A stretch of 64,000 bases of DNA from an uncultured Lachnotalea sp. (lineage in GTDB: Bacteria; Bacillota; Clostridia; Lachnospirales; Lachnospiraceae). Positions 617 through 56,423 of the stretch are shown in pieces. The notes beneath the pieces were generated by a model. That model was given only the letters and a program-made list of their open reading frames with translations. It was not told the origin of the DNA and did not search any database. Made by a program: the position numbers and the translations under genes. The stretch's first letter is position 1, and each line of letters begins with the position of its first letter. Location of the stretch: NCBI GenBank assembly GCA_947066815.1, contig CAMSZT010000011.1, positions 2,567 to 66,566 of the forward strand, given 5' to 3'.

Positions 617-794
617 GGGCCGTCGGGGCATCCGTTCCTCGCAGACACGTCGATTTTGCGGATTTTGCTGCGCCGCCTATGGCAGGCAATTTCACCTCCA
701 TCAAACCGGGTCGGCTGAAATTGCCTGCGCTAGACGCAGCAAAATCCGCAAAATCTTCCTATCGTCTGCTCCGGAACGGATGCCCCGACGGCCC
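617..794. repeat. Family-1 rod-like palindromic repeat, copy 1 (core orientation A on + strand)
   Basis: Perfect 22-bp outer arms gggccgtcggggcatccgttcc (617-638) / ggaacggatgccccgacggccc (773-794). 21-bp helix GATTTTGCGGATTTTGCTGCG/CGCAGCAAAATCCGCAAAATC. Apical stem GCAGGCAATTTC/GAAATTGCCTGC with loop ACCTCCATCAAACCGGGTCGGCT. The core recurs at four other loci. Confidence 0.9.
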
Positions 795-2605: not shown

Positions 2606-2865
2606 AAATATTTCCACCTGTGCGGTTGGAACGCCTTGTTCTGGCTTCGTCAGGGAACAGCTGGTTGCAGCAGACGATAGGCAGATTTTGCAGATTTTGC
2701 AGATTTTGCGAGCCTAGCGTCATCGAACCGGCTGACCCGTTTTGATGGAAGCAGGTTCGGTGACAATAAGCGGCGCAGCAAAATCAAAAAATCAACGTGT
2801 CTGCGAAACCTGCTGCTCTCTGACGGAGACATGAGAAAGCTTCAACCGCACAGGTAGAAATATTT
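2606..2865. repeat. Family-1 rod-like palindromic repeat, copy 2 (core orientation A on - strand; long form)
   Basis: Outermost arms aaatatttccacctgtgcggttg (2606-2628) / caaccgcacaggtagaaatattt (2843-2865). The core is nearly identical to copy 5 in reverse complement. Contains gcagatttt x3. Confidence 0.9.
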
Positions 2866-2964: not shown

Positions 2965-5427
2965 TTACGCGTCCAGCTCCACCTTCACCCGGTCCAGATG
3001 CCAGATCTCATCTACGTACTGCCGGATCGTCCGGTCGGAAGAGAACTTGCCGGAGCAGGCCACGTTCATGATGGCCGCCTTCGCCCACCACTTCTCGTCC
3101 CGGTAAGCCGCATCCACCCGCTTCTGGGCTTCGGCGTAGGAACGGAAATCCTTCAGATTGAAGTAGGTGTCCGCCTTGTCGGTGCTCTGGGTGTTGAGCA
3201 GAGAATTGTACAGGTCACGGAACAGCTCCGTGTTGTGGGGCGCATAGAAGCCGTTGATGAGCTGCATCAGCACCCGGCGGATATCCTGGTCGTCGTTGAA
3301 GATATCCATGGGATTGTAGCCGCCGTGGGTCTCATAGTCAATGACCTCGTCGGAGGACATGCCGAAGATGAAGGCGTATTCCTTGCCCACCTCCTCCACG
3401 ATCTCCACGTTGGCGCCGTCCATGGTGCCGAGGGTCAGGGCCCCGTTCAGCATGAACTTCATGTTGCCCGTGCCGGAAGCCTCCTTGCTGGCGGTGGAGA
3501 TCTGTTCGCTGACGTCAGCCGCCGCAAAGATCCACTCCGCATTGGACACCCGGTAGTCCTCGATGAACACCACCTTGATCTTTCCGCCTATGGACTTGTC
3601 GTTGTTGACCACGTCGGCCACGGAATTGATCAGCTTGATGGTCAGCTTGGCGATCTTATAGCCCGCCGCCGCCTTGGCGCCGAAAATAAAGGTCCTGGGA
3701 ACCATGTCCATCTCCGGATTGTCCTTGAGCTGGTTGTACAGGTACATCACATGGAGGATGTTGAGGAGCTGTCTCTTGTACTCGTGGAGCCGCTTCACCT
3801 GCACGTCGAAGATGGACCTGGGATCCACGTCGATGCCGTTGTTCTCCTTGATATATTTCGCCAGACGGAGCTTGTTCTGGTACTTGATGTTCATAAACTC
3901 CTGCTGACACTTTTCGTCATCCGCATAGACGGCCAGCTTCTTGATGTGGGGCAGGTCGGTGATCCACTCGTCGCCGATCTTGTCCGTCACCCACTTAGCC
4001 AGAAGCTCGTTGCCATGGAGCAGGAACCTGCGCTGAGTGATGCCGTTGGTCTTGTTGTTGAATTTCTGAGGCTCCATCTCATAGAAATCTTTCAGGACCT
4101 TGTTCTTTAAGATCTCTGTATGCAGTCTCGCCACGCCGTTGACGGAAAAGCTTCCGGCAATGGCCAGATGGGCCATCTTCACCTGTCCGTCATAGATGAT
4201 GGCCATCCGCCTCACCTTCTCCTCGTCGCCGGGGAATGTCTTCCTGATCTTCTCCACGAAACGACGGTTGATCTCCTCCACGATCTGGTAAATACGGGGA
4301 AGCAGTCTGGAGAACAACTCCAGCGGCCATTTTTCCAGGGCCTCGGCCATGATGGTGTGGTTGGTGTAAGCGCAGGTCTTGGTGGTGATCTCCCACGCCT
4401 CGTCCCAGTCCAGACCTTCCACGTCCAAAAGGACCCTCATCAGCTCCGGAACCGCCACCGTGGGATGGGTGTCGTTCATCTGGAACACCACCTTCTCCGG
4501 CAGCATGTGGATGTCGTCATGGAGCATCTTGAACTTCTGCACCGCCCGCTGTACGCTGGCGGAGATGAAGAAATACTGCTGTTTCAGGCGGAGCTCCTTG
4601 CCCGCATAATGGTTGTCGTTGGGATAGAGGACCTCGACGATGTTCTTCGCCAGGTTCTCCTGCTCCACCGCCTTCCGGTAATCGCCCTTGTCAAAGGAAT
4701 CCAGGCTGAAGGTGTTGATGGGCTCCGCATCCCAGATCCTGAGCGTGTTCACCACGTTATTTCCATAGCCCACGATGGGAAGGTCGTAGGGCACGGCACG
4801 GACTGACTGATAGCCCTCCTGGATGAACTGGTTCCTCCCGTTCTTCCATTCCGTGCGGACATAGCCGCCGAATTTGACCTCGACCGCATACTCGTCCCGG
4901 CGCACCTCGAAGGGATTGCCGTCCTTCAGCCAGTCGTCCGGAACCTCCATCTGATAGCCGTCCCGGATCTCCTGCTTGAACATGCCGTACTTGTAACGGA
5001 TGCCGCAGCCGTAGGCCGCATAGCCCAGGGTGGCCAGCGAATCCAAGAAACAGGCCGCCAGACGGCCCAGGCCGCCGTTTCCGAGGGCGTAATCCCGCTC
5101 CTGGTCCTCGATCACATTGAGGTCAAAGCCCAGCTCGTCGAGAGCCCCTTTGATCTCGTCCCTGGCACAGATATTGATGATGTTGTTTCCAAGTGCACGG
5201 CCCATGAGAAACTCCATGGACATATAGTAGACCATCTTTGCATCCTGTTTGTCATACTGCTTGTGGGTGGCGATCCACTCGTCGACGATGACATCCTTCA
5301 CCGCATAGGCCACGGCCTGGAACACCTGCTTCGGCGTGGCCTCGGAAATGGTCTTCCGATAAAGATTCTTGACGTTGCTTTCCACTTCCCGTTTAAAGTG
5401 TTCCTTATCAAACTGATAACTGGACAT
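2965..5427 (-). CDS. glgP: glycogen/alpha-glucan phosphorylase (GT35)
   Basis: Contains the PLP-site signature EASGTGNMKFMLNGALTLGTMDGANVEI. Start placed at MSSYQF (aggagg RBS) rather than the ORF-track start 5457. Confidence 0.95.
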   Translation of the reverse strand: MSSYQFDKEHFKREVESNVKNLYRKTISEATPKQVFQAVAYAVKDVIVDEWIATHKQYDKQDAKMVYYMSMEFLMGRALGNNIINICARDEIKGALDELGFDLNVIEDQERDYALGNGGLGRLAACFLDSLATLGYAAYGCGIRYKYGMFKQEIRDGYQMEVPDDWLKDGNPFEVRRDEYAVEVKFGGYVRTEWKNGRNQFIQEGYQSVRAVPYDLPIVGYGNNVVNTLRIWDAEPINTFSLDSFDKGDYRKAVEQENLAKNIVEVLYPNDNHYAGKELRLKQQYFFISASVQRAVQKFKMLHDDIHMLPEKVVFQMNDTHPTVAVPELMRVLLDVEGLDWDEAWEITTKTCAYTNHTIMAEALEKWPLELFSRLLPRIYQIVEEINRRFVEKIRKTFPGDEEKVRRMAIIYDGQVKMAHLAIAGSFSVNGVARLHTEILKNKVLKDFYEMEPQKFNNKTNGITQRRFLLHGNELLAKWVTDKIGDEWITDLPHIKKLAVYADDEKCQQEFMNIKYQNKLRLAKYIKENNGIDVDPRSIFDVQVKRLHEYKRQLLNILHVMYLYNQLKDNPEMDMVPRTFIFGAKAAAGYKIAKLTIKLINSVADVVNNDKSIGGKIKVVFIEDYRVSNAEWIFAAADVSEQISTASKEASGTGNMKFMLNGALTLGTMDGANVEIVEEVGKEYAFIFGMSSDEVIDYETHGGYNPMDIFNDDQDIRRVLMQLINGFYAPHNTELFRDLYNSLLNTQSTDKADTYFNLKDFRSYAEAQKRVDAAYRDEKWWAKAAIMNVACSGKFSSDRTIRQYVDEIWHLDRVKVELDA

Positions 5428-5499: not shown

Positions 5500-8400
5500 C
5501 TATACGGTCGCCTTCTCCACACCAAGCATAACACGTTCGCCGTTAATATTCCAGTCTTTTTCGTATCCGGCGACCTTTCCGATATAAATTTCCTCGGCCA
5601 GGACCTCGCCCTTGATCTCTTCCGTGTGGTTTTTCAGGATCTCGGCGATCCTGTCGTTCTCATCCTGGTACAGATGGATGTGGTCCGTGACCTCGAAGCC
5701 GGCCTCCTTGCGCATGGTCTGCACCTTGCTGATGATCTCCCGGACAAAGCCCTCCTCCAGAAGTTCCGGCGTCAGGTTGGTGTCCAGCACCACCGTGACC
5801 TCCCCGGAAACCTCCGTCACATAGCCCTCCTTCTGGACCATGTCGATCAGAAGGTCCTCTTCCGACAGAGTCACCTCCGTCCCGGCCATGGACATGGTGA
5901 GGAAGCCTTTCGCCTTCAGCTCGTCCATGGCGGCATTGCCGTCCAGCTCCGCAAGCTCCTTCTTGATCTGTCCCAGAAGCTTCCCGTACTTGGGCCCCAC
6001 GGTCCGCATCTGCGGCTTGAAGGTGTAGGTGGTAAACTCCCGCACATCGTCGGTGAACACGGCCTTCTTCACATTCAGCTCGTCTTCTACGATCTCGGCA
6101 TAGAACTCCGGCAGGGCGAAGGGCGCCTTCACGAACATCTTTCCGATGGGCTGGCGGTTTTTGATGTTTGCCGTGTTGCGGCAGGCCCGGCCCATGACCA
6201 CCACCTTCAGCACATGCTCCATGTGATCTTCCAGCTCTCTGTCAATGTGGCTCTCGTCCGCTGTGGGGAAGTCACACAGGTGCACGCTCTCCGGAGCGTC
6301 CTTGTCGATGCTGCACACCAGGTTCCGGTAAATGTCCTCCGTCATGAAGGGGATCATCGGCGCCGCCGCCTTGCTGACCGTCACGAGGGCCGTGTACAGG
6401 GTCATGTAGGCATTGACCTTGTCCTGGGGCATTCCCTTCGCCCAGAACCGCTCCCTGCTCCGTCTCACGTACCAGTTGGAAAGATCGTCCACGAACTCCT
6501 GCAGGGCCTTGGCCGCCTCCGGGATCCGGTAGTTCTCCAGGTGGGAATCCACGGCCTTCACCATGGTGTTCATCTTGGACAGAATCCATCTGTCCATGAC
6601 GGAAAGGGCACTGTAGTCCAAACTATATTTTGTCGCGTCGAAATTGTCAATGTTCGCATAGAGCACGAAGAAGGCATAGGTGTTCCAGAGGGTCCCCATG
6701 AACTTCCTCTGCCCCTCCATGACGGCCTTCCCGTGGAACCGGTTGGGCAGCCAGGGTGCGCTGTTGATATAGAAATACCAGCGGATGGCGTCGGCCCCGT
6801 AGGTGGCGAGGGCGTCAAAGGGATCCACCGCATTCCCCTTGGACTTGCTCATCTTCTGGCCGTTCTCGTCCTGCACGTGCCCCAGCACGATCACGTTCTC
6901 GTAGGGCGCTTTGTTGAAGATCAGGGTCGAGATCGCCAGCAGGGAATAGAACCATCCCCTGGTCTGGTCCACCGCCTCGGAGATAAACTGGGCCGGGAAC
7001 TGGGCCTTGAAGAGTTCCTCGTTCTCAAAGGGATAATGATGCTGGGCAAAGGGCATGGCCCCGGAGTCAAACCAGCAGTCGATCACCTCCGGCACCCGCC
7101 GCATCTGCTTCCCGCACTTGGGGCAGGTGATGGTCACGGCGTCGATGAAGGGCCGGTGCAGCTCGATGTCGTCGGGACAGTTGTCGGACATTTCCTTGAG
7201 CTCCGCAATGCTCCCGATGGAATGCTGGTGCCCGCACTCACATTCCCAGATGTTTAAGGGCGTCCCCCAGTAACGGTTCCTGGAAAGGCCCCAGTCCTGG
7301 ATGTTCTCCAACCAGTCGCCGAAGCGGCCCTTGCCGATGCTCTCCGGGATCCAGTTGATGGTGTTGTTGTTGCGGATCAGGTCCTCCTTGACCTCCGTCA
7401 TCTTGATGAACCAGGACTCTCTGGCGTAATAGATGAGCGGCGTGTCGCAGCGCCAGCAGTGGGGATAGCTGTGCTCGAACTTGGGGGCGTCGTAGAGCAG
7501 TCCCCGCTCGTCCAGCCAGACGAGCACCTTCGGGTCGGCCTCCTTCACGAACAGCCCCGCAAAAGGTGTCTCCTCCGTCATGTTCCCCTTGCCGTCCACC
7601 ATCTGCACGAAGGGCATGTTGCCGTATTTGCGGCAGACCCTGGCATCGTCCTCACCGAAGGCCGGAGCAATGTGAACCACGCCGGTGCCGTCGGTCAGGG
7701 TGACGTAACCATCACAGACCACGAAGAACGCTTTCTTGTTCTGCTTATCGGCCACCTGCTTCGCACAGTCGAAGAGCGGCTCATACTCCTTATATTCCAG
7801 GTCTTTTCCTTTATAAGTCTCAAGCACCTCGTAGGCAGGCTTCCCCTCCTCCGCCAGACGTCCGAGCACCGTGTCCAGAAGGGCGGTCGCCATATAGTAG
7901 GTCTTCCCGTCGGCGGCCTTCACCTTCGCATACTCCTCGTCCGGGTTCACGCAGAGGGCGATGTTGGAGGGCAGGGTCCAGGGCGTCGTGGTCCAGGCCA
8001 GGATGTAAGCGTCCTCGCCCTTCACCTTGAAGCGGACCACCGCCGAGCGTTCCTTGATATCTTTATAGCCCTGGGCCACCTCGTGGCTGGAGAGGGGCGT
8101 GCCGCAGCGGGGGCAGTAGGGTACGATCTTGAAGCCCTTGTAGAGAAGGCCCCGGTCCCAGATCTTCTTGAGCGCCCACCATTCCGACTCGATAAAGTCG
8201 TCGTGGTAGGTCACGTAGGGATCGTCCATGTCGGCCCAGAAGCCCACCGTGCCGGAGAAATCCTCCCACATGCCCTTGTACTTCCACACGCTCTCCTTGC
8301 AGTGGGCGATAAAGGGCTCCAGGCCGTACTCCTCGATCTGCTCCTTGCCGTCCAGGCCCAGCATCCGCTCCACTTCCAGCTCCACCGGGAGCCCGTGGGT

Positions 8401-8658
8401 GTCCCATCCGGCCTTCCTGGGCACCATGTAGCCCTTCATGGTCCGGTAGCGGGGGATCATGTCCTTGATGACCCTGGTCAGCACGTGGCCGATGTGGGGC
8501 TTCCCGTTGGCCGTGGGCGGCCCGTCGTAGAAGGTGTAGGTCTCCCCCTCCTTCCGGCTGTCAATGCTCTTCTCAAAGATGTCGTTGTCCTTCCAGAACT
8601 GTTGGATCTTCTTTTCCCGCTCTACAAAATTCAGGTCCGTAGAAACTTTCTCGTACAT
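5500..8658 (-). CDS. ileS: isoleucine--tRNA ligase (long, type-2 form)
   Basis: HIGH motif PTANGKPHIGHV and KMSKSKGN. Start at MYEKVSTDLNF (ATG 8658, RBS aggagg); the ORF-track N-extension runs into the T-box terminator. Confidence 0.95.
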   Translation of the reverse strand: MYEKVSTDLNFVEREKKIQQFWKDNDIFEKSIDSRKEGETYTFYDGPPTANGKPHIGHVLTRVIKDMIPRYRTMKGYMVPRKAGWDTHGLPVELEVERMLGLDGKEQIEEYGLEPFIAHCKESVWKYKGMWEDFSGTVGFWADMDDPYVTYHDDFIESEWWALKKIWDRGLLYKGFKIVPYCPRCGTPLSSHEVAQGYKDIKERSAVVRFKVKGEDAYILAWTTTPWTLPSNIALCVNPDEEYAKVKAADGKTYYMATALLDTVLGRLAEEGKPAYEVLETYKGKDLEYKEYEPLFDCAKQVADKQNKKAFFVVCDGYVTLTDGTGVVHIAPAFGEDDARVCRKYGNMPFVQMVDGKGNMTEETPFAGLFVKEADPKVLVWLDERGLLYDAPKFEHSYPHCWRCDTPLIYYARESWFIKMTEVKEDLIRNNNTINWIPESIGKGRFGDWLENIQDWGLSRNRYWGTPLNIWECECGHQHSIGSIAELKEMSDNCPDDIELHRPFIDAVTITCPKCGKQMRRVPEVIDCWFDSGAMPFAQHHYPFENEELFKAQFPAQFISEAVDQTRGWFYSLLAISTLIFNKAPYENVIVLGHVQDENGQKMSKSKGNAVDPFDALATYGADAIRWYFYINSAPWLPNRFHGKAVMEGQRKFMGTLWNTYAFFVLYANIDNFDATKYSLDYSALSVMDRWILSKMNTMVKAVDSHLENYRIPEAAKALQEFVDDLSNWYVRRSRERFWAKGMPQDKVNAYMTLYTALVTVSKAAAPMIPFMTEDIYRNLVCSIDKDAPESVHLCDFPTADESHIDRELEDHMEHVLKVVVMGRACRNTANIKNRQPIGKMFVKAPFALPEFYAEIVEDELNVKKAVFTDDVREFTTYTFKPQMRTVGPKYGKLLGQIKKELAELDGNAAMDELKAKGFLTMSMAGTEVTLSEEDLLIDMVQKEGYVTEVSGEVTVVLDTNLTPELLEEGFVREIISKVQTMRKEAGFEVTDHIHLYQDENDRIAEILKNHTEEIKGEVLAEEIYIGKVAGYEKDWNINGERVMLGVEKATV

Positions 8659-8664
8659 GTCATT

Positions 8665-8955
8665 CCTCCTGTAAGAATACGGTTTACGAAAAAAGGGCTT
8701 CGTCCAGAAAAGGACGAAGCCCAGAGTCTTCGCTATACCACCCGTTCTGCATACGCCGCCCAAGACGGTCATACACGCTCCCGATAACGGCGGATCCCGG
8801 CACAGCCTACCAAATGCCCGAAGCCCTCTTCGCCCGGCGGCTCCTCCGCCCGGACGGCCACGGCACCCTTCAGCCTGCAGCTTGGGAGTGATCTTCGATG
8901 CGGCCCTACTCGCCCCGGCTTCCCACCGCCGCCGGGTCTCTGCGCCTTTCCTGCC
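8665..8955 (-). promoter_or_regulatory. T-box leader, isoleucine (AUC specifier)
   Basis: Minus strand shows the AGAGA stem-I element. A GAAGAUCAC specifier context places AUC at the complement of 8890-8892. The T-box sequence is GGGTGGTATAGCG (complement of 8731-8743). The terminator GGGCTTCGTCC-TTTCT-GGACGAAGCCC plus T6 lies at 8689-8722. Confidence 0.9.
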
Positions 8956-17859: not shown

Positions 17860-17916
17860 CCGTCGGGGCGGCCTATCATCTGCCTATCGTCTGCTGCAAG
17901 CCGTTGCCCCCGACGG
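17860..17916. repeat. solo-end remnant of the Family-1 repeat, forming a hairpin over the folC stop
   Basis: Contains atctgcctatcgtctgc, identical to the right-end box of copies 2 and 5, flanked by ccgtcggggcggc / gccgttgcccccgacgg. Confidence 0.7.
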
Positions 17917-19240
17917 AAACATTTGTGTGCATGAGAAGCTCCTTAATACTCCCCGCCAGGTAAAGGGAGCCTGCGATAAACAGAAGATCGTCCTCTCCCT
18001 TCTTCTCCCTGGCAAACGCAAAGGCCTCCCCAATCTCCCCGAAACACCAGACCGGCCTGTCGGTCCTCCTCTCAAACGCACCCCGGATGTCTGCGAGGGG
18101 CAGGGCCCGGTAGCTGTCAAGTTCCGTCAAAATAAAACCGTCAAAGCCCGCCGGGCGGCAGATCTCGTCGATCATGGTCTCATAGTCCTTCTCCACTACC
18201 GCCGAGAACAGCAGGTATTTTTTCCCCGCACAGGGAAGCCTTGTCACCGTCTCGAGAAAGACCCGGATCCCGTCGTCGTTGTGGGCGCCGTCCATGTAGA
18301 TCCCCGGAAGCACCGGCTCCATCCGCCCCGGCCAGGAGGTGCGGAGGAGGGCCTGCCGCACTCCGGCCGCCCATGCCGTCCCCGGCTGCAAACGATCCGT
18401 CCGGGGAAGGGGGAGCTTCTGCCGCAGGATCCCGGCCGCCGTCACCGCCAGGGACGCATTCATGGCCTGGTAATCCGCCACAAAGGGCACCCGGAGTTCC
18501 TCCCCGGCAAGCGCCCCCTCCCTCACCCGGAAGCAGATCCCCGACCGGCCCCTCTCTGCGATCTCAAAATCCGCGGGGTTCACCGGCCATGCAGGCGCTC
18601 CCAGCGCCGCCGCCTGCGCCCGGATCACCGCCGATGCCTCCGGCACGCTGTCGTCGTAAACCACCGGGCATCCTTCTTTGATGATCCCCGCCTTCTCCCC
18701 CGCGATCTCCGGGATCGTCTCCCCCAAAATTTCCGTGTGGTCTAGGCTGATGGAAGCGATCACGCAGACCAGAGGGTCCTCGATCACGTTGGTGGCGTCC
18801 AGCCGCCCGCCGAGCCCCACCTCCAGCACCGTCACATCCACCTGCCGCTCCTTAAAGATCAGCATTCCGATCAGGAACAAAAATTCAAAATAGGAGGGAT
18901 GGACGATCTCCTCCCGCTCCCGGCACAAGTCGTACACCCGGCGGAAGGCCGCCAGAAATTCCTCCTCCGACGCCTGCTCCCCGTCGATCAGGAACCGCTC
19001 CGTGATATCCACCAGATGAGGGGAGACAAAAGTCCCCACATGATGTCCCTGTTCCAAAAGAATACGGCTGAGAAAGGCGCACACCGATCCCTTCCCGTTG
19101 GTCCCCGCCACATGAACGAACCGCTGTCCCTCCTCCGGATGTCCCAGAAGAGCAAGGATCCTCCGCTCATTGTCCATGGTGGTCTTCTTGGAAAATTTCG
19201 GGATCCCGTTGAGATACTCTTCCGCTTCTTTTATATCCAT
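17876..19240 (-). CDS. folC: bifunctional folylpolyglutamate synthase/dihydrofolate synthase
   Basis: Start at MDIKEAEEYLNGIPKF (ATG 19240). P-loop HVAGTNGKGSV. Mur-ligase architecture. Confidence 0.9.
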   Translation of the reverse strand: MDIKEAEEYLNGIPKFSKKTTMDNERRILALLGHPEEGQRFVHVAGTNGKGSVCAFLSRILLEQGHHVGTFVSPHLVDITERFLIDGEQASEEEFLAAFRRVYDLCREREEIVHPSYFEFLFLIGMLIFKERQVDVTVLEVGLGGRLDATNVIEDPLVCVIASISLDHTEILGETIPEIAGEKAGIIKEGCPVVYDDSVPEASAVIRAQAAALGAPAWPVNPADFEIAERGRSGICFRVREGALAGEELRVPFVADYQAMNASLAVTAAGILRQKLPLPRTDRLQPGTAWAAGVRQALLRTSWPGRMEPVLPGIYMDGAHNDDGIRVFLETVTRLPCAGKKYLLFSAVVEKDYETMIDEICRPAGFDGFILTELDSYRALPLADIRGAFERRTDRPVWCFGEIGEAFAFAREKKGEDDLLFIAGSLYLAGSIKELLMHTNVSVGGNGLQQTIGR

Positions 19241-19555
19241 TCTGTTTTCGCCCTCTCTGCTTTTGTTCACCCTGCTTCTCCCATCCTCGTTTCGTTCTTC
19301 CCCGGAGTTTTTCTTCCCCGGAACGTATACCCAAAGGGCACTCGTGAACGCATACGCTTCGCGCAGGTAACTAAAGTATAGCACAGATCCGGCACATTTT
19401 GTATCTTCAATTTTCATCCGCACCCGTGCTATAATGGGGATATGACACGAAAAAATCAACCGGCAATCGCAAAATGTGAAATTGCGAGAATATCCAACAA
19501 ATTTTTGAATTTTGCAATCACCTGACTTTTGTATGTTCACGAAAGGATCCAGACC

Positions 19556-20803
19556 ATGAAATTCCTCCATTTAGCGGACCTCCACTTGGGAAAATCGATC
19601 CACGGCGTATCGCTGCTGGAGAGCGGCGACCAGAGAGCCTGGGTGGACGGCTTCCTGGAGCTTGCGGGAGAGCTCCGGCCGGACGCCGTTCTGATTGCGG
19701 GCGATATTTATGACAGGAGCGCCCCTCCCGGCGATGCGGTGGCGCTGCTTGACAGCATGCTGACCGCCCTGGCCGAGATGGGCGTTCCGGTCCTGATGGC
19801 TGCGGGAAACCATGATTCCGGCCAGCGCCTGGCCTTCGGGGGAAACCTCCTGGCAAAACAAAAGGTACATATTTCCGGCGTGCTTTCCAGGGAGCTTGCA
19901 CACGTCACCCTCGAAGATCCGGACGGGCCGGTCACCTTCTGGCTGATGCCCTACGTGTTTCCGGCCCTCGTGGCCCAGAAGCTTGAGGACGGCGACATCC
20001 ACGACTACGATACGGCCGTCCGGAAGCTTCTGGCCCGCCAGGACATTGACTTTTCCCGGAGGAACGTCCTGATCGCCCACCAGAATGTCACGGCAGACGG
20101 GAAGGAGGTCCTCCGAGGCGGCTCCGAATCCATGGTGGGCGGCGTGGGACAGGTGGATTATCGCACCTTCGACGGGTTTGATTACGTGGCGTTGGGACAC
20201 ATCCATTCCTCCTATCCGGTGGGCCGGGAAAACGTCCGCTATGCCGGCTCCCCCCTGTGCTACCACTTCGAGGAGACCAGGCAGCCCGCCAAGGGGCCGC
20301 TCTTCGTAGAGCTCGGCCCAAAGGGAAGCGCCCCGCAAGTAAGCGTCCGGACCATTCCCCCTCTCCACCCGCTCCGGAAAATCACGGGAACCTACGAGGA
20401 GGTCCGGGAGGCGGAACTAAAAAACACCGCCCGGGGCGAATACTTGAGCATCCTGCTGACGGACACACGGATCACCCCGGAAATCTCCGCCTTTTTCCGG
20501 AGCCTCACCGAAAGCCGAGGCAGCGTTTTGATGGAACTGCTCTCCGAATACCGGCCCTTCGGGGAGGCGCAGACCGTCCCGGCCGCCGGTGCGGCGGCTG
20601 AAAAGGCCGTGGAAGAGCTGTTTGTGGACTTCTACGCCGACCGATGCGGCGGCCAGATGCCGGGCCGGGAGGAACAGGCGCTTTTGCAATTCGCAGGCGA
20701 GCAGGTGCGAAACGGCGACCCGGAGACCGACAAAAATTCACCGACCCGGAAAGAGATCGAAGCCCTGTTAAACTTCGCACTGGGACAGGAGGGAGCAGAA
20801 TGA
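19556..20803 (+). CDS. sbcD: exonuclease SbcCD, nuclease subunit D
   Basis: MKFLHLADLHLG, GDIYD and GNHD calcineurin-like phosphoesterase motifs. Its stop overlaps the sbcC ATG. Confidence 0.9.
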   Translation: MKFLHLADLHLGKSIHGVSLLESGDQRAWVDGFLELAGELRPDAVLIAGDIYDRSAPPGDAVALLDSMLTALAEMGVPVLMAAGNHDSGQRLAFGGNLLAKQKVHISGVLSRELAHVTLEDPDGPVTFWLMPYVFPALVAQKLEDGDIHDYDTAVRKLLARQDIDFSRRNVLIAHQNVTADGKEVLRGGSESMVGGVGQVDYRTFDGFDYVALGHIHSSYPVGRENVRYAGSPLCYHFEETRQPAKGPLFVELGPKGSAPQVSVRTIPPLHPLRKITGTYEEVREAELKNTARGEYLSILLTDTRITPEISAFFRSLTESRGSVLMELLSEYRPFGEAQTVPAAGAAAEKAVEELFVDFYADRCGGQMPGREEQALLQFAGEQVRNGDPETDKNSPTRKEIEALLNFALGQEGAE

Positions 20804-30413: not shown

Positions 30414-33059
30414 CTATTTCCCGAGCTGCGCCAGCCGCTCCTTCACCTGGGCCATCATCTGCTCATACTTCTCAAGCTTCTCCCGCTCCGCCTGGATCTT
30501 GGCCTGGGGTGCGCGGCTCACGAACTTCTCATTGTCCAGCATTCCCCGAGAACGGGCCAGTTCCTTGTTTAACCGCTCCTCTTCTTTCTGGAGGCGTTCG
30601 ATCTCCTTGGCCGTATCCACCAGTTCTGCGAGCGGCATGTAGACCACGGCCTTCGCCGTCACGGCGGAGACGGCGTCCTTTGGGATCCCCGCCTTGTCCG
30701 CCTGCACCGTCACCTCGCCGGCAGAGCCCAAGGTGGCAAAGAACACCTTGCCGTTCTCAAAGATTTCCCGGACCGCCCCGTCCCCGGAAACCACAAACAC
30801 GCTGGCCTTCCGGCTGGGCGGCACGTTCATGGAGGTGCGCACGCCCCGGATGGCCCGGACCGCTTCCTTGATGGTCTCCACCGCCGTCTCGTCCTCCGCA
30901 AACTCCCACTCGGCCTTAAATTCCGGCCAGGAGGAGATCATGATGGATTCCTCCTCGTCCTGCAGGTTGCAGAAGATTTCCTCCGTGATGAAAGGCATGT
31001 ACGGGTGCAGAAGCTTCAGAGACTGGATGAGCACCGTTTTCAAAGTCCAGAGGGCCGCCGCCTTCGTCTCGTCGTCGTCATTGTACAGGCGGGGCTTCAC
31101 CATCTCGATGTACCAGTCGCAGAATTCCTCCCAGATAAAGTCGTAGACCTTCTGGAGGGCGATCCCCATCTCGTACTTGTCCAGGTTCTCCGTCACGTCC
31201 TTCGTCAGGGTGTTGACCTTGGAGAGAATCCACTTGTCAGCCCCGGTCAGGCTGTCCACGCCCACCTCGTGGACGGAGGCACGGGACATGTTCATCAGGA
31301 TGAAGCGGGATGCGTTCCAGACCTTGTTGGCAAAATTCCGGCTGGCCTCCACCCGCTCCCAGTAGAACCGCATGTCGTTGCCGGGTGCGTTTCCGGTGAT
31401 CAGAGTCATGCGCAGGGCGTCGGCACCGTACTTGTCCACCACCTCCAGGGGATCGATGCCGTTTCCGAGGGACTTGCTCATCTTCCTGCCCAGGGAATCC
31501 CGCACCAGGCCGTGGATCAGCACCGTGTGGAAAGGCTCCTTCCCGGTCTGCTCAAGGCCCGAGAACACCATGCGGATGACCCAGAAGAAAATGATGTCGT
31601 AGCCGGTCACCAGCACGTCGGTGGGATAGAAATAATCCAGCTCCGGCGTCTTCTCCGGCCAGCCAAGGGTCGAGAAGGGCCAGAGGGCCGAGGAGAACCA
31701 GGTATCCAGCGTGTCCTCGTCCTGGACCATGTGGGCGCAGCCGCATTTCGGGCAGACCTTGGGCGCTTCCTTTGCAACCACCATCTCGCCGCACTTCTCG
31801 CAGTAATAAGCCGGAATCCGGTGTCCCCACCAGATCTGCCTGGAAATGCACCAGTCCCGGATGTTCTCCAGCCAGTGGAGATAGGTCTTTCCGAAACTCT
31901 CCGGCACGAACTTCAGTCTCCCGGACTTTAACGCCTCGATGGCCGGCTTCGCCATCTCGTCCATCTTCACGAACCACTGCTGCTTCACCATGGGCTCGAT
32001 GGTGGTCTTGCACCGGTCATGAGTTCCCACGTTGTGGGAGTGGTCGGCCACCTTCACCAGAAGGCCCAGCCCCGAGAGCTCCTCCACGATGGCCTTCCTG
32101 GCCGCATAGCGCTCCATGCCCTGGTACTTGCCGCCGTTCTCATTGATAGTGGCGTCGTCATTCAGGATGTTGATCTCCGGAAGGTTATGCCGCTTCCCCA
32201 CCTCGAAGTCGTTCGGGTCATGGGCGGGCGTGATCTTCACACAGCCGGTCCCGAACTCCCTGTCCACGTATTCGTCGGCCACCACGGGGATCTCCCGGTT
32301 CACGATGGGCAGGATCAGCATCTTCCCCACCAGGTCCTTGTAGCGCTCGTCATCCGGGTGGACGGCCACCGCCGTGTCGCCCAGCATGGTTTCCGGCCTG
32401 GTGGTGGCGATCTCCACGAACCGCCCCGGCTCCCCCTTCACCGGATAATTGATATGCCAGAAATGGCCCGCCTGCTCCTCGTGGACCACCTCCGCATCGG
32501 AGATCGACGTCTGGCACTCCGGGCACCAGTTGATGATGCGGGAGCCCTTGTAAATATAGCCCTTCTCATAAAGGCGGATGAACACCTCCAAAACCGCATC
32601 GGAACAGCCCTTGTCCATGGTGAACCGCTCCCGCTCCCAGTCCGCCGAAGAGCCCAGCTTCTTGAGCTGCCGCACGATCCTTCCGCCGTACTCCTCCTTC
32701 CAGGCCCAGACATGCTCCAGAAATTCCTCTCTGGTCAGGTCGTCCTTGTTGATGCCTTCGCTGCGGAGCTTGTCGATGACCTTCACCTCCGTGGAAATGG
32801 CCGCATGGTCCGTTCCCGGCTGCCACAGGGCCGAATAGCCCTGCATCCGTTTGTAGCGGATCAGAATGTCCTGCATGGTATTGTCCAGGGCGTGGCCCAT
32901 GTGAAGCTGGCCCGTGATGTTGGGCGGCGGCATCACGATGGTGAAGGGCTTCTTGTCCCGGTCCACCTCGGCGTGAAAATAATTCTTCTCCATCCACCGC
33001 TCATACAGCCTGTCCTCGATGGCCTGTGGATTGTAGGTCTTTTCCAGTTCTCTGCTCAT
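30414..33059 (-). CDS. valS: valine--tRNA ligase
   Basis: [14 protein letters not shown] and KMSKSLGN motifs with a C-terminal coiled coil. Start at [15 protein letters not shown] (ATG 33059, RBS gaaaggaaagg). The ORF-track extension runs through upstream tandem repeats. Confidence 0.95.
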
Positions 33060-33084
33060 AAATTCCTTTCCTTTCTCCGATATG

Positions 33085-33290
33085 TGCCGCTGGCTAATTT
33101 CCTCTTGCGCCCCCACGCTGTTCGAGCAGGGAAGAGGGGGTTTTCCCTGCTCGCCGTGCGGGGCGCACGCCGCATAGCGGCTAATTTCCTCTTGCGCCCC
33201 ACGCTGTTCGAGCAGGGAAGAGGGGTTTTTCCCTGCTCGCCGTGCGGGGCGCACGCCGCATAGCGGCTAATTTCCTCTTGCGCCCCTGCA
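33085..33290 (-). repeat. 86-87 bp tandem repeat, about 2.3 copies, inside the valS 5' UTR
   Basis: Unit starts (ggctaatttcctcttgcgcc) at 33092, 33179 and 33265. Each unit can fold as GCGCCCCGCACG..GAGCAGGGAA-loop-TTCCCTGCTC..CGTGGGGCGC on the minus strand. Confidence 0.9.
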
Positions 33291-34047: not shown

Positions 34048-34256
34048 ACATTTCCTCCCAAATGCGAATACGATAACTTCTCTATTACAGAGATTACCAC
34101 ATCAGGCACACAAGTCAAGAAAATTTTTATAAAGCCCTCTGTTCGTGCCGGAAAGCCGCCGTTCGTGCCGTCCCCCCGCCCCTCCGCACAAAAGCTGATA
34201 TAATGTTGCCATTGAAAAAATTCACAAAAAATCACCTTATTACGGGAGGAAGACTC

Positions 34257-40725: not shown

Positions 40726-40890
40726 ACAGGTAATTGCGAAACTTAAAATTGCCGAGTAGATTCTGACGATTGCGTCCATCCAAAGCCTGCTACGCCAAAC
40801 ATTCCAACTGAGCCCATAAGCGCAGAGGGCTTTTTCTGGAAGCAATCGCCAGAATCTTTCCCATATTTTTCAAATTCCGCAACTACCTGT
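40726..40890. repeat. Family-2 hairpin repeat (about 165 bp)
   Basis: Arms acaggtaattgcgaaactt (40726-40744) / aaattccgcaactacctgt (40872-40890), and agattctgacgattgc (40758-40773) / gcaatcgccagaatct (40842-40856). Arm-like copies at 19462-19528 and 56283-56312. Confidence 0.7.
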
Positions 40891-43066: not shown

Positions 43067-43170
43067 AGTCCTTCTCTCCCTCGCAGATTCACTCACTGTT
43101 CGCCGTTTGGTTTTCCTCTGTCCTATTATAAAATACCGGGGGGCAAAAATCAAACGGAAATGTGACGAAC

Positions 43171-43421
43171 AAAAACCGACCGCCCTTTGTTTCGAGGTAT
43201 CGCACGCCAAAAGGTTTCTCCGTTGCCGATTTCAGACACGTCGGTTTTGTCGATTTCACTGCGCCGCCTATTGCAGGCAATTTCACCTCCATCAAACCGG
43301 GTCGGTTAAAATTGCCTGCGCTATGCTCGTGAAATCACCAAACCCTTCCTATCGTCTGCGCATCGGAAACGGAGAAACCTTCCGGCGCCTCGCAGCTTTC
43401 CACAAAGGGCGTCCGGTTTTT
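43171..43421. repeat. Family-1 rod-like palindromic repeat, copy 3 (orientation A on + strand)
   Basis: Outer arms aaaaaccgaccgccctttgt (43171-43190) / acaaagggcgtccggttttt (43402-43421). Inner arms aaggtttctccgttgccgat (43211-43230) / atcggaaacggagaaacctt (43362-43381). Conserved core and loop CACCTCCATCAAACCGGGTCGG. Confidence 0.9.
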
Positions 43422-43569
43422 GTTCTGACAGCGGGGGCCGCCACGGCGGGTTCCTATCCGGGAGGCGGAGGAGGCGCCTGTGACTGCCTGTAGATTTTCA
43501 ACAAAGCCGTCCGCCTTCGTTCTGGTGAGCGGAACCACTCCATAACGATGCTCGTGAAATCGCCGTTCT

Positions 43570-48525: not shown

Positions 48526-48896
48526 CTCCCCGTGCCTCCAATCTTACAAAAGATAATAAGCGAAAGTCATGATATACCTATGCCTGTTTTGTCTTCTTTT
48601 TAAAACCTCTCTCCGGATGATCCCACAGTCACGCATTTCATTTTAATTTCTATACAGTATCAGCCGTTTATATCTTATATGTACACACATAAGATATTTC
48701 TTCCTCCTTCAAAACACCCTTTTTCCTGCCGTAATCAATGATCCACTGTTCGATTGTTGGTTCTTCCGAAATGATCTCATCGCCCAGATCAGCATTGCAG
48801 ATACCACCATGAATGAAAGTGGTTTATTTGAATATAAACATATATAGCATCTTCATCTGCCAAAGTGCCACTTTCCCTTCAGCCCCCCGACCGTCA

Positions 48897-49147
48897 GGAA
48901 GAGGACCGGCCGCTTTTTCAGCCGACTTTTCCCGGGGCCGTCCGCCGGCTTCTCCTAAGCAGACAATAGGAGGTTTGGACGAATTTCCCGAGCATAGCGC
49001 AGGCAATTTTCGCCGACCCGGTTTGATGGAGGCAAAATTGCCTGCGATCGGCGGCGCAGGGAAATCGTTCAAACCGAACGTGTCTGCGTGGAGAAGCCGG
49101 CGGACGGCCCCGAAAACAGCCTCCTAAAAAGCGGCCGGTCCTCTTCC
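48897..49147. repeat. Family-1 rod-like palindromic repeat, copy 4 (orientation A on - strand)
   Basis: Perfect 22-bp outer arms ggaagaggaccggccgcttttt (48897-48918) / aaaaagcggccggtcctcttcc (49126-49147). Perfect 22-bp middle arms ggggccgtccgccggcttctcc (48934-48955) / ggagaagccggcggacggcccc (49090-49111). Conserved core. Confidence 0.9.
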
Positions 49148-49148
49148 G

Positions 49149-49898
49149 TCACTCCCTCCCACACACCAACCTGTTGATCTGCGCCCCCATGTACCCGCCG
49201 CCGAACCCATTGTCGATGTTGACCACGGCCATCCCCTCAGCGCAGGAATTGAGCATGCACAGAAGGGGCGCGATCCCGTTAAGCCCGGCCCCATAACCCA
49301 CAGAAGTCGGAACGGCGATGACCGGCTTGTCCACCAGCCCCGTGATGACGCCGCCCAGGGCGCCCTCCATCCCCGCCACCGCCACGATACAGTTGGCCTT
49401 CCGGATCTCCTCAATTTTGGAGAAGAGCCGGTGGATCCCGGCCACCCCCACGTCAAATACCCGGAGCACCCGGCTCCCGTGGAACTCCGCCGTCTGGGCT
49501 GCCTCCTCCGCCACGGGAATATCCGCCGTCCCTCCGGTACAGACCGCCACCAGCCCCTTCCGCTCCGCCGGGTGCGGCTCATATTTAAGCACACCGGAAA
49601 CCTCGTCGTAGCCCACCTCCGGCACCGCAAGACGCACCGCCTCATACTGCTCCGCCGAAGCCCTGGTGCCCATGACGTTCACGCCCCGGTCCCGGAAGCT
49701 CTCGTAAATGCGGACCAGGTGGTCCAGCTTCTTCCCCTGGCAGAAGATCACCTCACCGAATCCCCGGCGCGCACTCCGGTGAAAATCAATCTTGGCACAG
49801 CCGATGTCCTCATACTCCTGTGCCCCCATCATGATCTCCGCCTCCTCCACAGAGAGTTCCCCCGCCTTCACCTGTTCCAAAAGTTCCCTGACCTCCAT
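49149..49898 (-). CDS. larB: nickel-pincer cofactor biosynthesis protein LarB (NaAD carboxylase/hydrolase, PurE-like)
   Basis: N-terminal helical extension plus PurE-like core VAVCTGGTADIPVAEEA...VAGMEGALGGVI...VIAVPTSVGYG. Confidence 0.85.
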   Translation of the reverse strand: MEVRELLEQVKAGELSVEEAEIMMGAQEYEDIGCAKIDFHRSARRGFGEVIFCQGKKLDHLVRIYESFRDRGVNVMGTRASAEQYEAVRLAVPEVGYDEVSGVLKYEPHPAERKGLVAVCTGGTADIPVAEEAAQTAEFHGSRVLRVFDVGVAGIHRLFSKIEEIRKANCIVAVAGMEGALGGVITGLVDKPVIAVPTSVGYGAGLNGIAPLLCMLNSCAEGMAVVNIDNGFGGGYMGAQINRLVCGRE

Positions 49899-50765: not shown

Positions 50766-52301
50766 TCAAAACGCCTCCGCCTGCCGTCTGATCTCTTCAT
50801 AAATGTCCTGAAAAGGCTTTCCCGAACTGTCCGCATACCGGGCCACATCTTCATATTCCGGATAGCAGAAGGCAAGCTCCCCCCGCCGCACCTCCTTGAC
50901 CCTGGCCGGCCCGTAGGAGGTTTCCACCGTGCGGATCTTCCTGGGAAGGACCGTCCTGAGGATCGGATATCGCCGGATGCCGATGGTGGTGGTATGCCGG
51001 AAAATGATATCCTCCAACGCTTCCCGCTTTCCTTCGTCGCAGACCACCTTCATCAGCCAGGCCGGCCGGTTCTTCTTCATAAACGCCGGGAGATAGCACA
51101 CGTCCCTGGCCCCCGCCGCAAAGAGCCGCTCCATCACATAGCCCAGCGCCTCCCCGGTGGCGTCGTCAATATTGGTCTCCAGCATCCAGAGCCCGTCCTC
51201 GGCTCCCGGGCAGACACCCGCCTCCCGGCCATCCCCGGCTCCCGGGCCGTCTCCCGGCCTCCGGCCACTCCCGCTTTCCGGGCGCTCCTCGATCAGACAG
51301 GCCCGCAGGATGTTGGCCTTCGGGAAATCCTTTTTCCCGGCCCCTATTCCCGTTTTAAGGATACGGAACGATTCCGGCAGACGCTCCCTGGTCCGGACGC
51401 CCGCCGCAATGGCCGCCCCGGTGGGCGTCACCATCTCCCCCCTGGTGTCCGTCATTCTCAGGAAAAGCCCGCGGGCCTCGGCGACGGCCATGACCGCCGG
51501 AACCGGGACCGGGAGAATGCCGTGCTGGCAGTGGACATGGCCGCTCCCCTCGCAGATCTCCGAGACCACCGCCTCCGTAATGTCCAGATCATCCAGACAG
51601 ATAGCCGCGGCCGCAATGTCCACGATGGAGTCCACCGCCCCCACCTCGTGGAAATGCACCTCCGAAATATCCTTCCCGTGGACCTTGGCCTCCGCCTCCG
51701 CCACGATCCCGAAAATCCGGAGCGCCGTCTCCTTCGCCCGCTCCGTCATGCCCGAACGGCGGATGATCTCAGTGATATCCCCCAGATTCCGGTGGACATG
51801 CCCGTGCTCATGGCCATGGCCATCTCCGTATTCATGCATATGGCTGTGCCCGTGTTCATGGCTGTATCCCTGCCCGTTTGTATGCTCATGGCCGTCCTCA
51901 TGCTCATGTGCATGCAGGTGCCCATGCGTATGCTCATGGCCGTCCTCATGCTCATGCGCATGCAGGTGCCCATGTGTATGCTCATGACCGTCCTCATGCT
52001 CATGCGCATGCAGATGCCCACGGCTTTCCCCATGCCCATGCTGGTGCTCATGGCCGTTCCCCTGCCTATGCTCATATTCCACATAATCATGGCTGCCGCC
52101 GTCCTCGTCCCCGGCAAGCTCCACGTCAAAGCTGCAGGCTTCCACGCCGCATTTCACCCTCCGGCCGATCTTCACCTCATAGCCGGAGAGTCCCAGACTG
52201 GCAAGCCCCTCCAGAAGCTTTTCCCGGTCGGCCCCCAGATCCAGGAGCGCCGCCACCGTCATGTCCCCGCTGATTCCCGAATAGCATTCCAAATAAAGCA
52301 T
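50766..52301 (-). CDS. larC: nickel insertion protein LarC (pyridinium-3,5-bisthiocarboxylate mononucleotide nickel chelatase) with an expanded His-rich insert
   Basis: N-terminus MLYLECYSGISGDMTVAALLDLGAD (DUF111/LarC family). A His-rich tract of about 100 aa. C-terminal domain present. Confidence 0.88.
   Translation of the reverse strand: MLYLECYSGISGDMTVAALLDLGADREKLLEGLASLGLSGYEVKIGRRVKCGVEACSFDVELAGDEDGGSHDYVEYEHRQGNGHEHQHGHGESRGHLHAHEHEDGHEHTHGHLHAHEHEDGHEHTHGHLHAHEHEDGHEHTNGQGYSHEHGHSHMHEYGDGHGHEHGHVHRNLGDITEIIRRSGMTERAKETALRIFGIVAEAEAKVHGKDISEVHFHEVGAVDSIVDIAAAAICLDDLDITEAVVSEICEGSGHVHCQHGILPVPVPAVMAVAEARGLFLRMTDTRGEMVTPTGAAIAAGVRTRERLPESFRILKTGIGAGKKDFPKANILRACLIEERPESGSGRRPGDGPGAGDGREAGVCPGAEDGLWMLETNIDDATGEALGYVMERLFAAGARDVCYLPAFMKKNRPAWLMKVVCDEGKREALEDIIFRHTTTIGIRRYPILRTVLPRKIRTVETSYGPARVKEVRRGELAFCYPEYEDVARYADSSGKPFQDIYEEIRRQAEAF
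51881..52024 (-). repeat. 48-bp tandem repeat x3 inside larC (encodes HLHAHEHEDGHEHTHG x3)
   Basis: Units begin at 51881, 51929 and 51977 (tatgctcatggccgtcctcatgctcatg.gcatgcaggtgcccatg.g). Confidence 0.85.
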
Positions 52302-53848: not shown

Positions 53849-53865
53849 CGAATGACTTCCTTCCC

Positions 53866-54119
53866 AAAATTATTCCACCTGTGCGGTGAAAGGTTTTCCA
53901 TGTCTCCGTCAGGGAACAGCCCATTTCGCAGACACGTTGATTTTTTGATTTTGCTGCGCCGCCTATTGTCATCAAACCTGCTTCCATCAAAACGGGTCAG
54001 CCGGTTCGATGACGCTATGCTCGCAAAATCTGCAAAATCTGCCTATCGTCTGCTTCAAATGGGCTGTTCCCTGACGAAGACGGAATCCAATATTCCGACC
54101 GCACAGGTAGAAATTATTT
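53866..54119. repeat. Family-1 rod-like palindromic repeat, copy 5 (orientation A on + strand; long form)
   Basis: Outermost arms aaaattattccacctgtgcggt (53866-53887) / accgcacaggtagaaattattt (54098-54119). Inner arms gggaacagcccattt / aaatgggctgttccc. Apical stem GTCATCAAACC/GGTTCGATGAC with loop TGCTTCCATCAAAACGGGTCAGCC. Confidence 0.9.
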
Positions 54120-55461: not shown

Positions 55462-55539
55462 CGCCGAGTCCCCTCCCTCCATCTGACAGGTTTCCGCATT
55501 TTTCGCTTTCCCGAATATCCGGGAAGAAACTCTGTTTTC

Positions 55540-56253: not shown

Positions 56254-56423
56254 CTTCCGTCCCTCCACACCACTTCCCAGGCAATTTTAAATTTCGCAAT
56301 TACCTGACGCTATTTCCTATTATGCCCTATTTGCGGCGGACTTGCAAGAAAATCCTGCCGGCATCTATGGAAGCGACGGAAAGAATGTGGTATACTTTCT
56401 CTAAATAACCGCCAGGAGGAGGC

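Follow-up and report, generated by a model that had tools for sequence, protein, structure and literature searches.

The 64,000-nucleotide stretch analysed here, at its full length called the window, comes from contig CAMSZT010000011.1 of an uncultured Lachnotalea sp. of the family Lachnospiraceae. Scattered among its genes is a non-coding, multicopy palindromic repeat of 178-264 bp. Five full copies and a solo end lie at the positions where the original prediction, made from the DNA letters alone, had placed them, and they do share a core, which measures 128 nt and is common to the five full copies and the remnant. The coordinates first proposed were right as to position, while some of the true ends lie further out (copies 3 and 4; Table 1). 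Both orientations occur, as had also been noticed, with copies 1, 3 and 5 facing one way and copies 2 and 4 the other. The apical motif TCCATCAAAMCGGGTC is found 5 times in the window, against 0.21 expected, and CCTATCGTCTGC 7 times against 0.24.

The genes near the copies are ordinary chromosomal genes, coding for MgtE, glycogen phosphorylase, NAD synthetase, rubrerythrin, LarB/C/E, MoxR-type AAA ATPases, a VWA-like protein and a Mur-ligase-like protein, and there is no transposase gene among these neighbours of the window copies. The repeat favours intergenic DNA at or beside stop codons. Copy 1 is placed between the mgtE stop codon and a ribosome-binding site, that of the minus-strand gene which follows. 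The first bases of copy 4 overlap the TGA stop of larB (open reading frame, ORF, 49149-49898), copy 5 adjoins the TAA codon with which the VWA-like gene (54118-55482) ends, and the solo end, a derivative left by internal deletion, shares bases with the 3' part of the Mur-ligase-like ORF (17876-19570). In two cases, this Mur-ligase-like ORF (17876-17916) and larB at locus L044 (~7730-7770; loci outside the window carry L numbers), the 3' end of the gene reads into an arm of the element, and the repeat therefore supplies the final codons and the stop. Repeats that sit on stop codons alter gene 3' ends in this way. Copies 1 and 2 also bracket mgtE and its long 5' region as an inverted pair with 5' ends outward (641-2804), an arrangement retained in the metagenome-assembled genome (MAG) iMGMC-385 (L015 5364-7455). 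This has the look of a composite transposon, probably by coincidence, because mgtE is a housekeeping gene.

Table 1. Copies of the palindromic repeat in the window and their parts (TIR, terminal inverted repeat)
Feature	Position	Strand	Description
Copy 1	617..794	+	core unit without shell; orthologs at L032, L045 and L015
Copy 1, hypervariable stem (layer 2)	617-638 and 773-794		
Copy 1, core	641-769		
Copy 2	2612..2859	-	core unit within shell B; additional GCAAAATCT unit in one arm
Copy 2, TIRs	2612-2625 and 2846-2859		TTCCACCTGTGCGG and CCGCACAGGTAGAA
Copy 2, 4-bp direct repeat	2608-2611 and 2860-2863		ATAT
Remnant	17860..17916	+	both layer-2 arms and 3' core end only (CCTATCATCTGCCTATCGTCTGC)
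Copy 3	43165..43427	+	core unit within shell-A variant (ACGAACAAAAACCG...CGGTTTTTGTTCTG); ortholog at L020
Copy 3, flanks	43163-43166 and 43426-43429		TGAC at both sides
Copy 4	48895..49149	-	full shell-A element, 255 bp (ACGGAAGAGGACC...GGTCCTCTTCCTG)
Copy 5	53873..54112	+	core unit within shell B
Copy 5, TIRs	53873-53886 and 54099-54112		
Copy 5, 4-bp direct repeat	53869-53872 and 54113-54116		ATTA

Anatomy and distribution of the repeat

The element is made of nested layers. Its inner unit, about 178 bp long, consists of the 128-nt core, running from GCAGACACG to CCTATCGTCTGC, and a closing stem. The core is shut by a helix of 6 bp (GCAGAC/GTCTGC) and holds a long A/T-rich helix built from units of the GATTTTGC type, together with an asymmetric conserved internal loop that reads CTGCGCCGCCTAT on one side and either GCGCTAG.CGCAG or GCGCTATGCTCG on the other; its top is an apical helix with the loop TCCATCAAACCGGGTC. 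The second layer is the GC-rich closing stem, of 20-24 bp, the sequence of which is hypervariable yet paired in every full copy, with at least 21 outer pairs in 43 of 43. This inner unit stands alone in copy 1 and at L009, L016, L018, L030 and L044. Elsewhere it is enclosed in one of two shells. Shell A (5'-ACGGAAGAAAAnCGGTTCTTTTT...AAAAAGAACCGnTTTTCTTCCTG-3') makes a third layer beyond two unpaired stretches in 14-17 copies, which then measure 251-264 bp, copy 4 being a full example and copy 3 a variant; its termini, ACGGAAGA...TCTTCCTG, are conserved in at least 14 copies. Shell B is a perfect 14-bp TIR (TTCCACCTGTGCGG / CCGCACAGGTGGAA) present in copies 2 and 5 and at L014, L015 and L033.

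Shells and cores can be combined in various ways. Shell A alone makes a mini-hairpin of about 70 nt (L009, 71 nt; L143), and it is found truncated, over 77 nt, at L028, a locus with a further element of 155 nt in which the loop sequences of shell A are kept around an entirely different inner palindrome. Flipping of the core inside its shell by recombination between the arms was considered and ruled out: with respect to shell A, the core is forward in 14 copies and reversed in 0. The core itself accepts optional modules at fixed positions, with conserved loops and covarying stems. A hairpin module of 92 nt follows GCGCTAT at L004 (~4770-4865), L014 (~2890-2985) and L036 (~3505-3600), and a module of 42 nt occupies the A/T-rich helix at L015 (~7380-7421) and L021 (~1345-1385), the former being the ortholog of copy 2 of the window, which is devoid of it. 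The idea that these modules are independent repeats was dropped, as they are found within cores only. The outer arms, for their part, are not unrelated between copies as had been claimed: copies 2 and 5 share theirs at about 90% identity and, once more copies are compared, the arms sort into loose subfamilies that have conserved bases beside the core. Reading by eye revealed no conserved coding pattern in the apex-proximal frames of copies 1, 3, 4 and 5, and a candidate small ORF that would start from the GGAGG of the bottom-strand apex was set aside, the variants in the conserved ATAGGCGGCGCAG being, also by eye, without synonymous bias.

Scanning one genome per species with a 20-mer apex pattern (CYTCCATCAAAMCGGGTCRG) retrieves 46 loci. 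Eight uncultured Lachnospiraceae MAGs from the gut of mouse, ruminants and deer account for 43 of them, with up to about 17 copies per MAG; the other three, in a Comamonadaceae MAG, a Sphaerochaetaceae MAG and the Lachnospiraceae MAG RUI489 (L029), are chance matches that lack the core. The eight MAGs are CATJIW, CATNAD, CAJUQY, JAAWRC, JAAWBT, JAFOFP, JAFTXG and JAIKYU. An nhmmer model of the core recovers about 50 copies in the window and these first 46 loci, several of which have orthologous counterparts in the window, 80-92% identical. The range of the family is limited to a small clade of Lachnospiraceae from the gut. It was not found in viral contigs or in plasmid and phage collections, nor in any of 80 distant mgtE loci (at most 55% identical) from a metagenome scan with MgtE. 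Rfam 15 has no match in the whole window at the gathering threshold and none on the elements at E<=10 over 560-2900, and literature searches with strings of the family sequences returned no relevant occurrence. The remark that the motif belongs to no named RNA or repeat family is in agreement with these empty searches. An exact look-up of the LarB protein leads only to the same strain, with an identical element. Unitigs of that strain in Logan (L050-L053, L055 and L056) all end at one base just beyond the apex of the element, probably because the palindrome collapses the k-mer graph; repeats of this kind break short-read assemblies at their apices.

Pairing of the arms and its upkeep

Each copy folds into one long imperfect hairpin, as had been proposed. 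The minimum free energy with RNA parameters is -111 to -172 kcal/mol, with z-scores of -9.4 to -15 against dinucleotide shuffles, none of 200 shuffles doing as well; with DNA parameters, copy 1 folds as well on one strand as on the other (-76 and -80 kcal/mol). Covariation was evaluated on an alignment (A3) of 42 copies drawn from the window and the eight Lachnospiraceae MAGs, covering the core and 26 nt on each side, for which RNAalifold gives a structure of 53 pairs. Double-sided changes affect 42 of these 53 consensus pairs. The fraction of paired cells is 89.0% against 72.6% in shuffles, and double-change cells number 382 against 123.5, values that 0 of 500 shuffles reach, with the proviso that counts across related copies are non-independent; when the register is slid, pairing falls to 32-49%. 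With both controls pointing the same way, the covariation is therefore real. It includes the paired substitutions first noticed in the second helix, at pairs 54-140 (UA 22, CG 17) and 55-138 (AU 19, GC 14, CG 4).

What maintains this pairing is another matter. The original prediction took covarying stems with a conserved loop as an argument for selection on a folded nucleic acid. Template switching between the arms of a palindrome, or gene conversion, yields paired changes as well (PMC8794818, PMC7202029), and covariation is insufficient evidence of such selection because processes acting on palindromic DNA mimic its pattern. The copies show no signal specific to RNA. One-sided G-U states are rare outside three fixed positions, unlike what is seen in typical functional RNAs. 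Mismatches on the top strand comprise 79 G.T against 115 A.C (p=0.012, on non-independent counts), and those on the mRNA strand 47 G.T against 34 A.C, a difference that is not significant; wobble asymmetry as a signature of RNA was thus dropped, in the absence of a significant G.T bias toward the mRNA strand. Where the surrounding genes are co-directional, 8 elements are sense and 12 antisense, which on crude ORF calls amounts to no bias with respect to transcription. No terminator-like site accompanies copies 1 or 2, and the flanks of the copies show TTT(C) at most.

Comparison of orthologous copies, identified by the similarity of their flanks and then aligned, tells more about the process. 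Over 1566 pair comparisons, non-independent in that each ortholog group contributes several pairs, there are 85 compensated doubles, 31 uncompensated doubles and 237 single changes. As a rough estimate, a per-site divergence of ~15% with the two sides changing independently would give ~35 doubles, of which ~10 compensated. The excess of compensated doubles indicates therefore that complementarity is restored in place and not solely inherited from a master copy. Copy 1 provides an example, with GGGCCGTCGGGGCATCC/GGATGCCCCGACGGCCC in the window where its ortholog at L015 has GGGTCCGGGGCGCTTCC/GGAAGCGCCCCGGACCC. Paralogs within a genome, by contrast, have a median core identity of 0.72-0.79 (up to 0.96) against 0.20-0.39 for the closing stem, so that core and stem evolve in a decoupled manner. 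Between L026 and L040, the flanks of which are 97.7% identical, the closing stem is the same, and the swap concerns helix 4, the long helix, in its two arms and in a matched way, together with the variant of the 3' loop; a patch of clustered differences, TAGACGCAGC against TATGCTCAC, separates copy 1 from its three orthologs. Both cases look like conversion of the core from other copies. Orthologous cores are often conserved at 0.90-0.96 against 0.81-0.92 in the flanking, mostly coding, DNA, and conversion toward the family consensus could account for this. Orthologous comparisons of this sort are a natural test case for deciding whether hairpin pairing is kept by templated correction or by selection, a question that applies equally to the origin of RNA hairpins.

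Mobility and the nature of the element

The element comes and goes between related genomes, in line with what the original prediction suggested looking for: the larB and VWA sites are empty in relatives, with independent insertions and deletion derivatives, while contigs of the same strain are identical. Between larB and the AAA ATPase gene, the window has a spacer of 623 nt, against 0-74 nt in four relatives with LarB proteins 85-89% identical. In MAG iMGMC-385 (L044), the larB spacer contains two tandem inner units, at another position and in the opposite orientation with respect to copy 4. At the site between the VWA-like and AAA ATPase genes, the window has copy 5 (53849-54117), L145 and L146 are empty, with a spacer of 18-23 nt (L145 2545-2567), L144 has the same element as copy 5 with its centre deleted (2545-2663), and L143 has an element made of shell A only (2548-2681). 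This intergenic site is a hotspot for these repeats.

Set against the empty site, the window displays a 4-bp duplication, TAAT (ATTA on the plus strand), around the shell-B TIRs of copy 5, and the target-site duplication (TSD) of shell B is perfect in both window copies (ATAT for copy 2, ATTA for copy 5). Shell B fits the structural definition of a MITE, or miniature inverted-repeat transposable element, because it combines a TIR, a TSD and an empty site in a relative. The dismissal of an ordinary MITE, made on the premise that termini differ between copies, was premature: the outer shells are MITE-like, with termini conserved across copies. Shell A has an invariant AC on its left and an invariant TG on its right, the right end reading CCTG, and the bases that come after TG vary. 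Its left flank reads WGAC (TG or AG before AC) in 16 of 24 cases, tabulated from the printed sequences. A stop codon lies at most 4 nt from the 5' end in 11 of 14 full-length shell-A copies, and 5 of these end a real ORF. Insertion beside WGAC, with the TGA stop of a gene as the first site tolerated, would explain this placement.

Taken together, we consider that these repeats form a family of non-autonomous palindromic mobile DNA elements with onion-like nesting, akin to MITEs and REPINs, the pairing of which is kept by processes operating at the DNA level, and we give this reading a probability of roughly 0.6. Small MITE-like shells would carry the inner hairpin unit in their loop, and the composites would spread as units with a fixed polarity, because only insertions into the loop leave the shell mobile. 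Shells are presumably moved by a transposase acting in trans, which for shell B would be of the cut-and-paste DDE (Asp-Asp-Glu) type; shell A may insert 3' of a WGAC tetranucleotide without duplication. Pairing would be kept mainly because, during replication, intrastrand template switching copies to one arm a change that arose in the other, templated correction of this sort being known for quasi-palindromes (PMC7202029, PMC8794818), and whole cores are likely exchanged between copies through gene conversion. Selection on lineages that need the hairpin fold for mobilisation may contribute: for REPINs, a requirement for a folded single strand has been proposed, and their hairpins often show compensatory changes (PMC3116915). 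The conserved unpaired loops (CGCCGCCTAT, GCGCTAT/G and TCCATCAAACCGGGTC) are most likely protein recognition sites.

The family is new, and differs by sequence from REPINs, ERIC and MITEs, yet works like them. Its unusual points are a conserved apex with a variable closing stem, two alternative shells, modules at fixed sites, compensation in situ and the swapping of cores. ERIC, or IRU, of enterobacteria is reportedly an imperfect palindrome of ~127 bp. It resembles the present family in occurring in both orientations in transcribed intergenic regions, in having no known transposase, and in its fixed-site extra modules and internal-deletion variants; it has no sequence similarity with it and belongs to another host clade, and the present family has in addition a hypervariable closing stem and outer TIR shells. 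The attC sites of integrons are recombination substrates in the form of a folded single strand, with conserved unpaired bases and a variable, compensated stem. This pattern of a substrate defined by its structure is shared, but there are no R''/R' core sites (RYYYAAC/GTTRRRY), no integrase context and no cassette arrays: the ends read GCAGAC/GTCTGC, ACGGAAG/CTTCCTG or TTCCACC/GGTGGAA, and the copies are dispersed among housekeeping genes in both orientations.

Classical bacterial MITEs, such as Correia/NEMIS, RUP and Nezha (reviewed in PMC10969869 and PMC3184786), have their counterpart in the 14-bp TIR of shell B with its 4-bp TSD, the empty site of a relative and the internal deletion derivatives, and in the conserved termini of shell A, which exists also as a mini-element of ~70 nt. 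The inner 178-bp unit, by contrast, has neither conserved ends nor TSD, and complementarity extends along the whole element instead of being limited to the termini. REPINs, which are REP doublets mobilised by RAYTs (REP-associated tyrosine transposases), are likewise intergenic repeats without coding content that number in the tens in a genome, the full length of the element making one long hairpin in which conserved parts are split by a variable one and compensatory changes are common (PMC3116915, Bertels and Rainey 2011); they too appear long-lived, with vertical persistence, no recent bursts, singlet remnants and tandem clusters. In the present family, however, the apical core is the most conserved part and not merely the ends, there is no short REP unit of 20-40 nt with a terminal GTAG/CGTC tag (CGTC is internal and direct), elements are 180-260 bp long and nested in MITE shells, and the host is a Firmicute. 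As for the IS200/IS605 insertion sequences and their palindrome-associated derivatives (PATEs), moved by Y1 transposases (PMC3333891), they recall shell A by its position 3' of a preferred WGAC, its invariant CCTG end and the lack of a consistent duplication, and hairpins with conserved bulges could be recognised in single-stranded form; distinct subterminal hairpins on the left and right and a strand bias are absent here, and neither TnpA nor TnpB turned up in the DNA around the copies. Palindromic repeats dispersed through the genome have been well described for proteobacteria (REP/REPIN, ERIC, Correia), and hardly for gut Clostridia.

Several observations weigh against a family of non-autonomous mobile DNA elements. 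The inner unit lacks conserved termini, its closing stem is hypervariable and no TSD is observed around it, which leaves its own movement unexplained. For shell A, TGAC is present at both sides in only 3 of about 24 copies, an ambiguous signature. No engine has come to light: in the ~410 kb made of the window and the first 46 loci, that is, in DNA around existing copies, tblastn with one IS200 TnpA and one E. coli RAYT as queries gave no credible match (those below E=0.2 were spurious and fell in purH of the L001, L008 and L037 orthologs), no TIR pair encloses an ORF, and no cognate autonomous insertion sequence with matching ends is present. The search for solo core ends and TIR pairs returned only the window remnant, rearrangements at L044 and the pair of copies 1 and 2 around mgtE. 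The closest pair within a genome has ~90-96% core identity, with no sign of very recent bursts. The high conservation of orthologous cores could reflect purifying selection for a host function rather than conversion. Finally, all relatives are MAGs or metagenome contigs, and the assembly of repeats could have distorted some copies.

Among the other explanations, the nearest holds that a REPIN- or IS200/IS605-like element is cut out and inserted as a folded single strand by an HUH (His-hydrophobic-His) Y1 transposase or a domesticated RAYT-like enzyme that reads the conserved loops and bulges and cleaves beside a tetranucleotide, the need for a hairpin then explaining compensatory evolution. 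The WGAC found to the left of shell A, with the invariant CCTG end, variable flank and no consistent duplication, is what such an enzyme might leave, and the asymmetric loops are conserved within an otherwise variable rod. CGTC stands at both core ends in direct orientation, which may be compared with CGTC-tagged REPs (PMC3733652), REPINs share the pattern of conserved ends with a compensated spacer (PMC3116915), and elements are nested in hairpin loops as are some insertion sequences in REPs (PMC1525189). We see it as unlikely all the same: the 410 kb around the copies contain neither a Y1 nor a RAYT gene (a weak test), strand and orientation are unbiased (3 plus and 2 minus in the window), separate left-end and right-end hairpins and the tagged REP unit are missing, and shell B has an ordinary TIR and TSD. 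It is also doubtful, to a similar degree, that the hairpins have been domesticated, with a host function at each locus and purifying selection in situ on pairing and loops, be it as a stabiliser of mRNA 3' ends, an RNase III site, a bidirectional attenuator or a site bound by a nucleoid or topoisomerase protein. Pairing is kept at orthologous loci across species, cores there are frequently more conserved than the adjacent coding DNA, the sites lie between co-directional housekeeping genes, beside stop codons or just upstream of a ribosome-binding site, and the copies persist without near-identical siblings, as REP and ERIC repeats do. Related species, however, do without the element at the same sites, the ortholog of copy 1 at L015 has a decayed apex, deletion derivatives exist, there is no T-tract signature of a terminator, G.U is not favoured on the mRNA strand, and conversion from other copies can mimic conservation.

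Both strong covariation with conserved loops and the optional hairpin modules, which are fixed in position and have covarying stems of their own (92 nt at L004, L014 and L036; 42 nt at L015 and L021), would befit a structured non-coding RNA gene or a cis-regulatory RNA under selection for the fold of one strand. This is nonetheless the most improbable of the readings: there is no match to an Rfam family, elements lie in both orientations to transcription with strands that fold equally well, G-U intermediates are very few without wobble bias on the mRNA strand, promoter and terminator signals were not found, presence varies between species, and shell B has its TIR and TSD. Hardly less improbable, the outer arms could be resident hairpins, terminators for example, in the loops of which a 128-nt core transposon was inserted, arms differing with their targets. 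Within a genome, arms are indeed far more divergent than cores, many resemble an A-tract followed by a GC-rich stem and a T-tract, and shell loops do hold cargo. Against this, no matching stem pre-exists in empty sites or empty shells, independent insertions have related arms (L044 and copy 4), arms form subfamilies with a consensus beside the core and are shared by copies 2 and 5, and no copy ends with the T-run tail of a terminator. An origin of the arms in target or resident terminators was rejected on the empty sites and empty shells, and no orthologous empty site was found in which just the two arms are linked by a short loop. Rather unlikely, too, is that the family represents the visible part of an undescribed structure-guided mobilisation system of Firmicutes, where an enzyme, of HUH type or other, would read the conserved unpaired loops of a folded single strand in place of terminal sequences and would insert elements by preference at the apex of another hairpin; or the host may have recruited the core to bind a protein or to have RNA processed there, with purifying selection acting locus by locus. 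Structure-guided mobilisation, if true, would explain the nesting, the free ends, stems that stay paired in situ and whole cores being exchanged from one locus to another, and an enzyme that reads structure, if it exists, would be new for Firmicutes.

Other repeats of the window

A second, unrelated family of rod-like palindromes, ~160-210 bp long with the TIR CAGGTAATTGCGAAAC, is represented in the window by a shortened copy (40727-40889) and a solo end (56280-56306). Its pattern occurs 5 times against 0.34 expected, and full copies fold at about -94 to -111 kcal/mol. Elsewhere it is found at L018 (1011-1223), L037 (2896-3085, 4342-4555 and 5590-5792), L012 and L038. With two rod-like families, uncultured Lachnospiraceae host a dense, layered population of hairpin repeats.

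Upstream of mgtE (2219-2600), Rfam detects no Mg riboswitch at the gathering threshold; the region contains an inverted repeat of 33 nt (2356-2388 and 2495-2527). The large ORFs 5500-8772 and 30414-33254 are paralogs that share conserved segments, and no T-box is found near them at the same threshold. The 5' end of the latter ORF, on the minus strand, coincides with two tandem 86-nt units that are 99% identical (33111-33282), each with a GC-rich hairpin (CCCCACG...CGTGCGGGG). Other repeats are internal to genes. Overlapping CATG-rich repeats with periods of 12, 18 and 30 nt (51823-52080) lie inside larC (Ni_insertion; 50766-52301), where they probably encode a histidine-rich stretch, and eight tandem 27-nt units (36567-36809) inside the plus-strand ORF 34203-36917 indicate a low-complexity repeat in a large protein.

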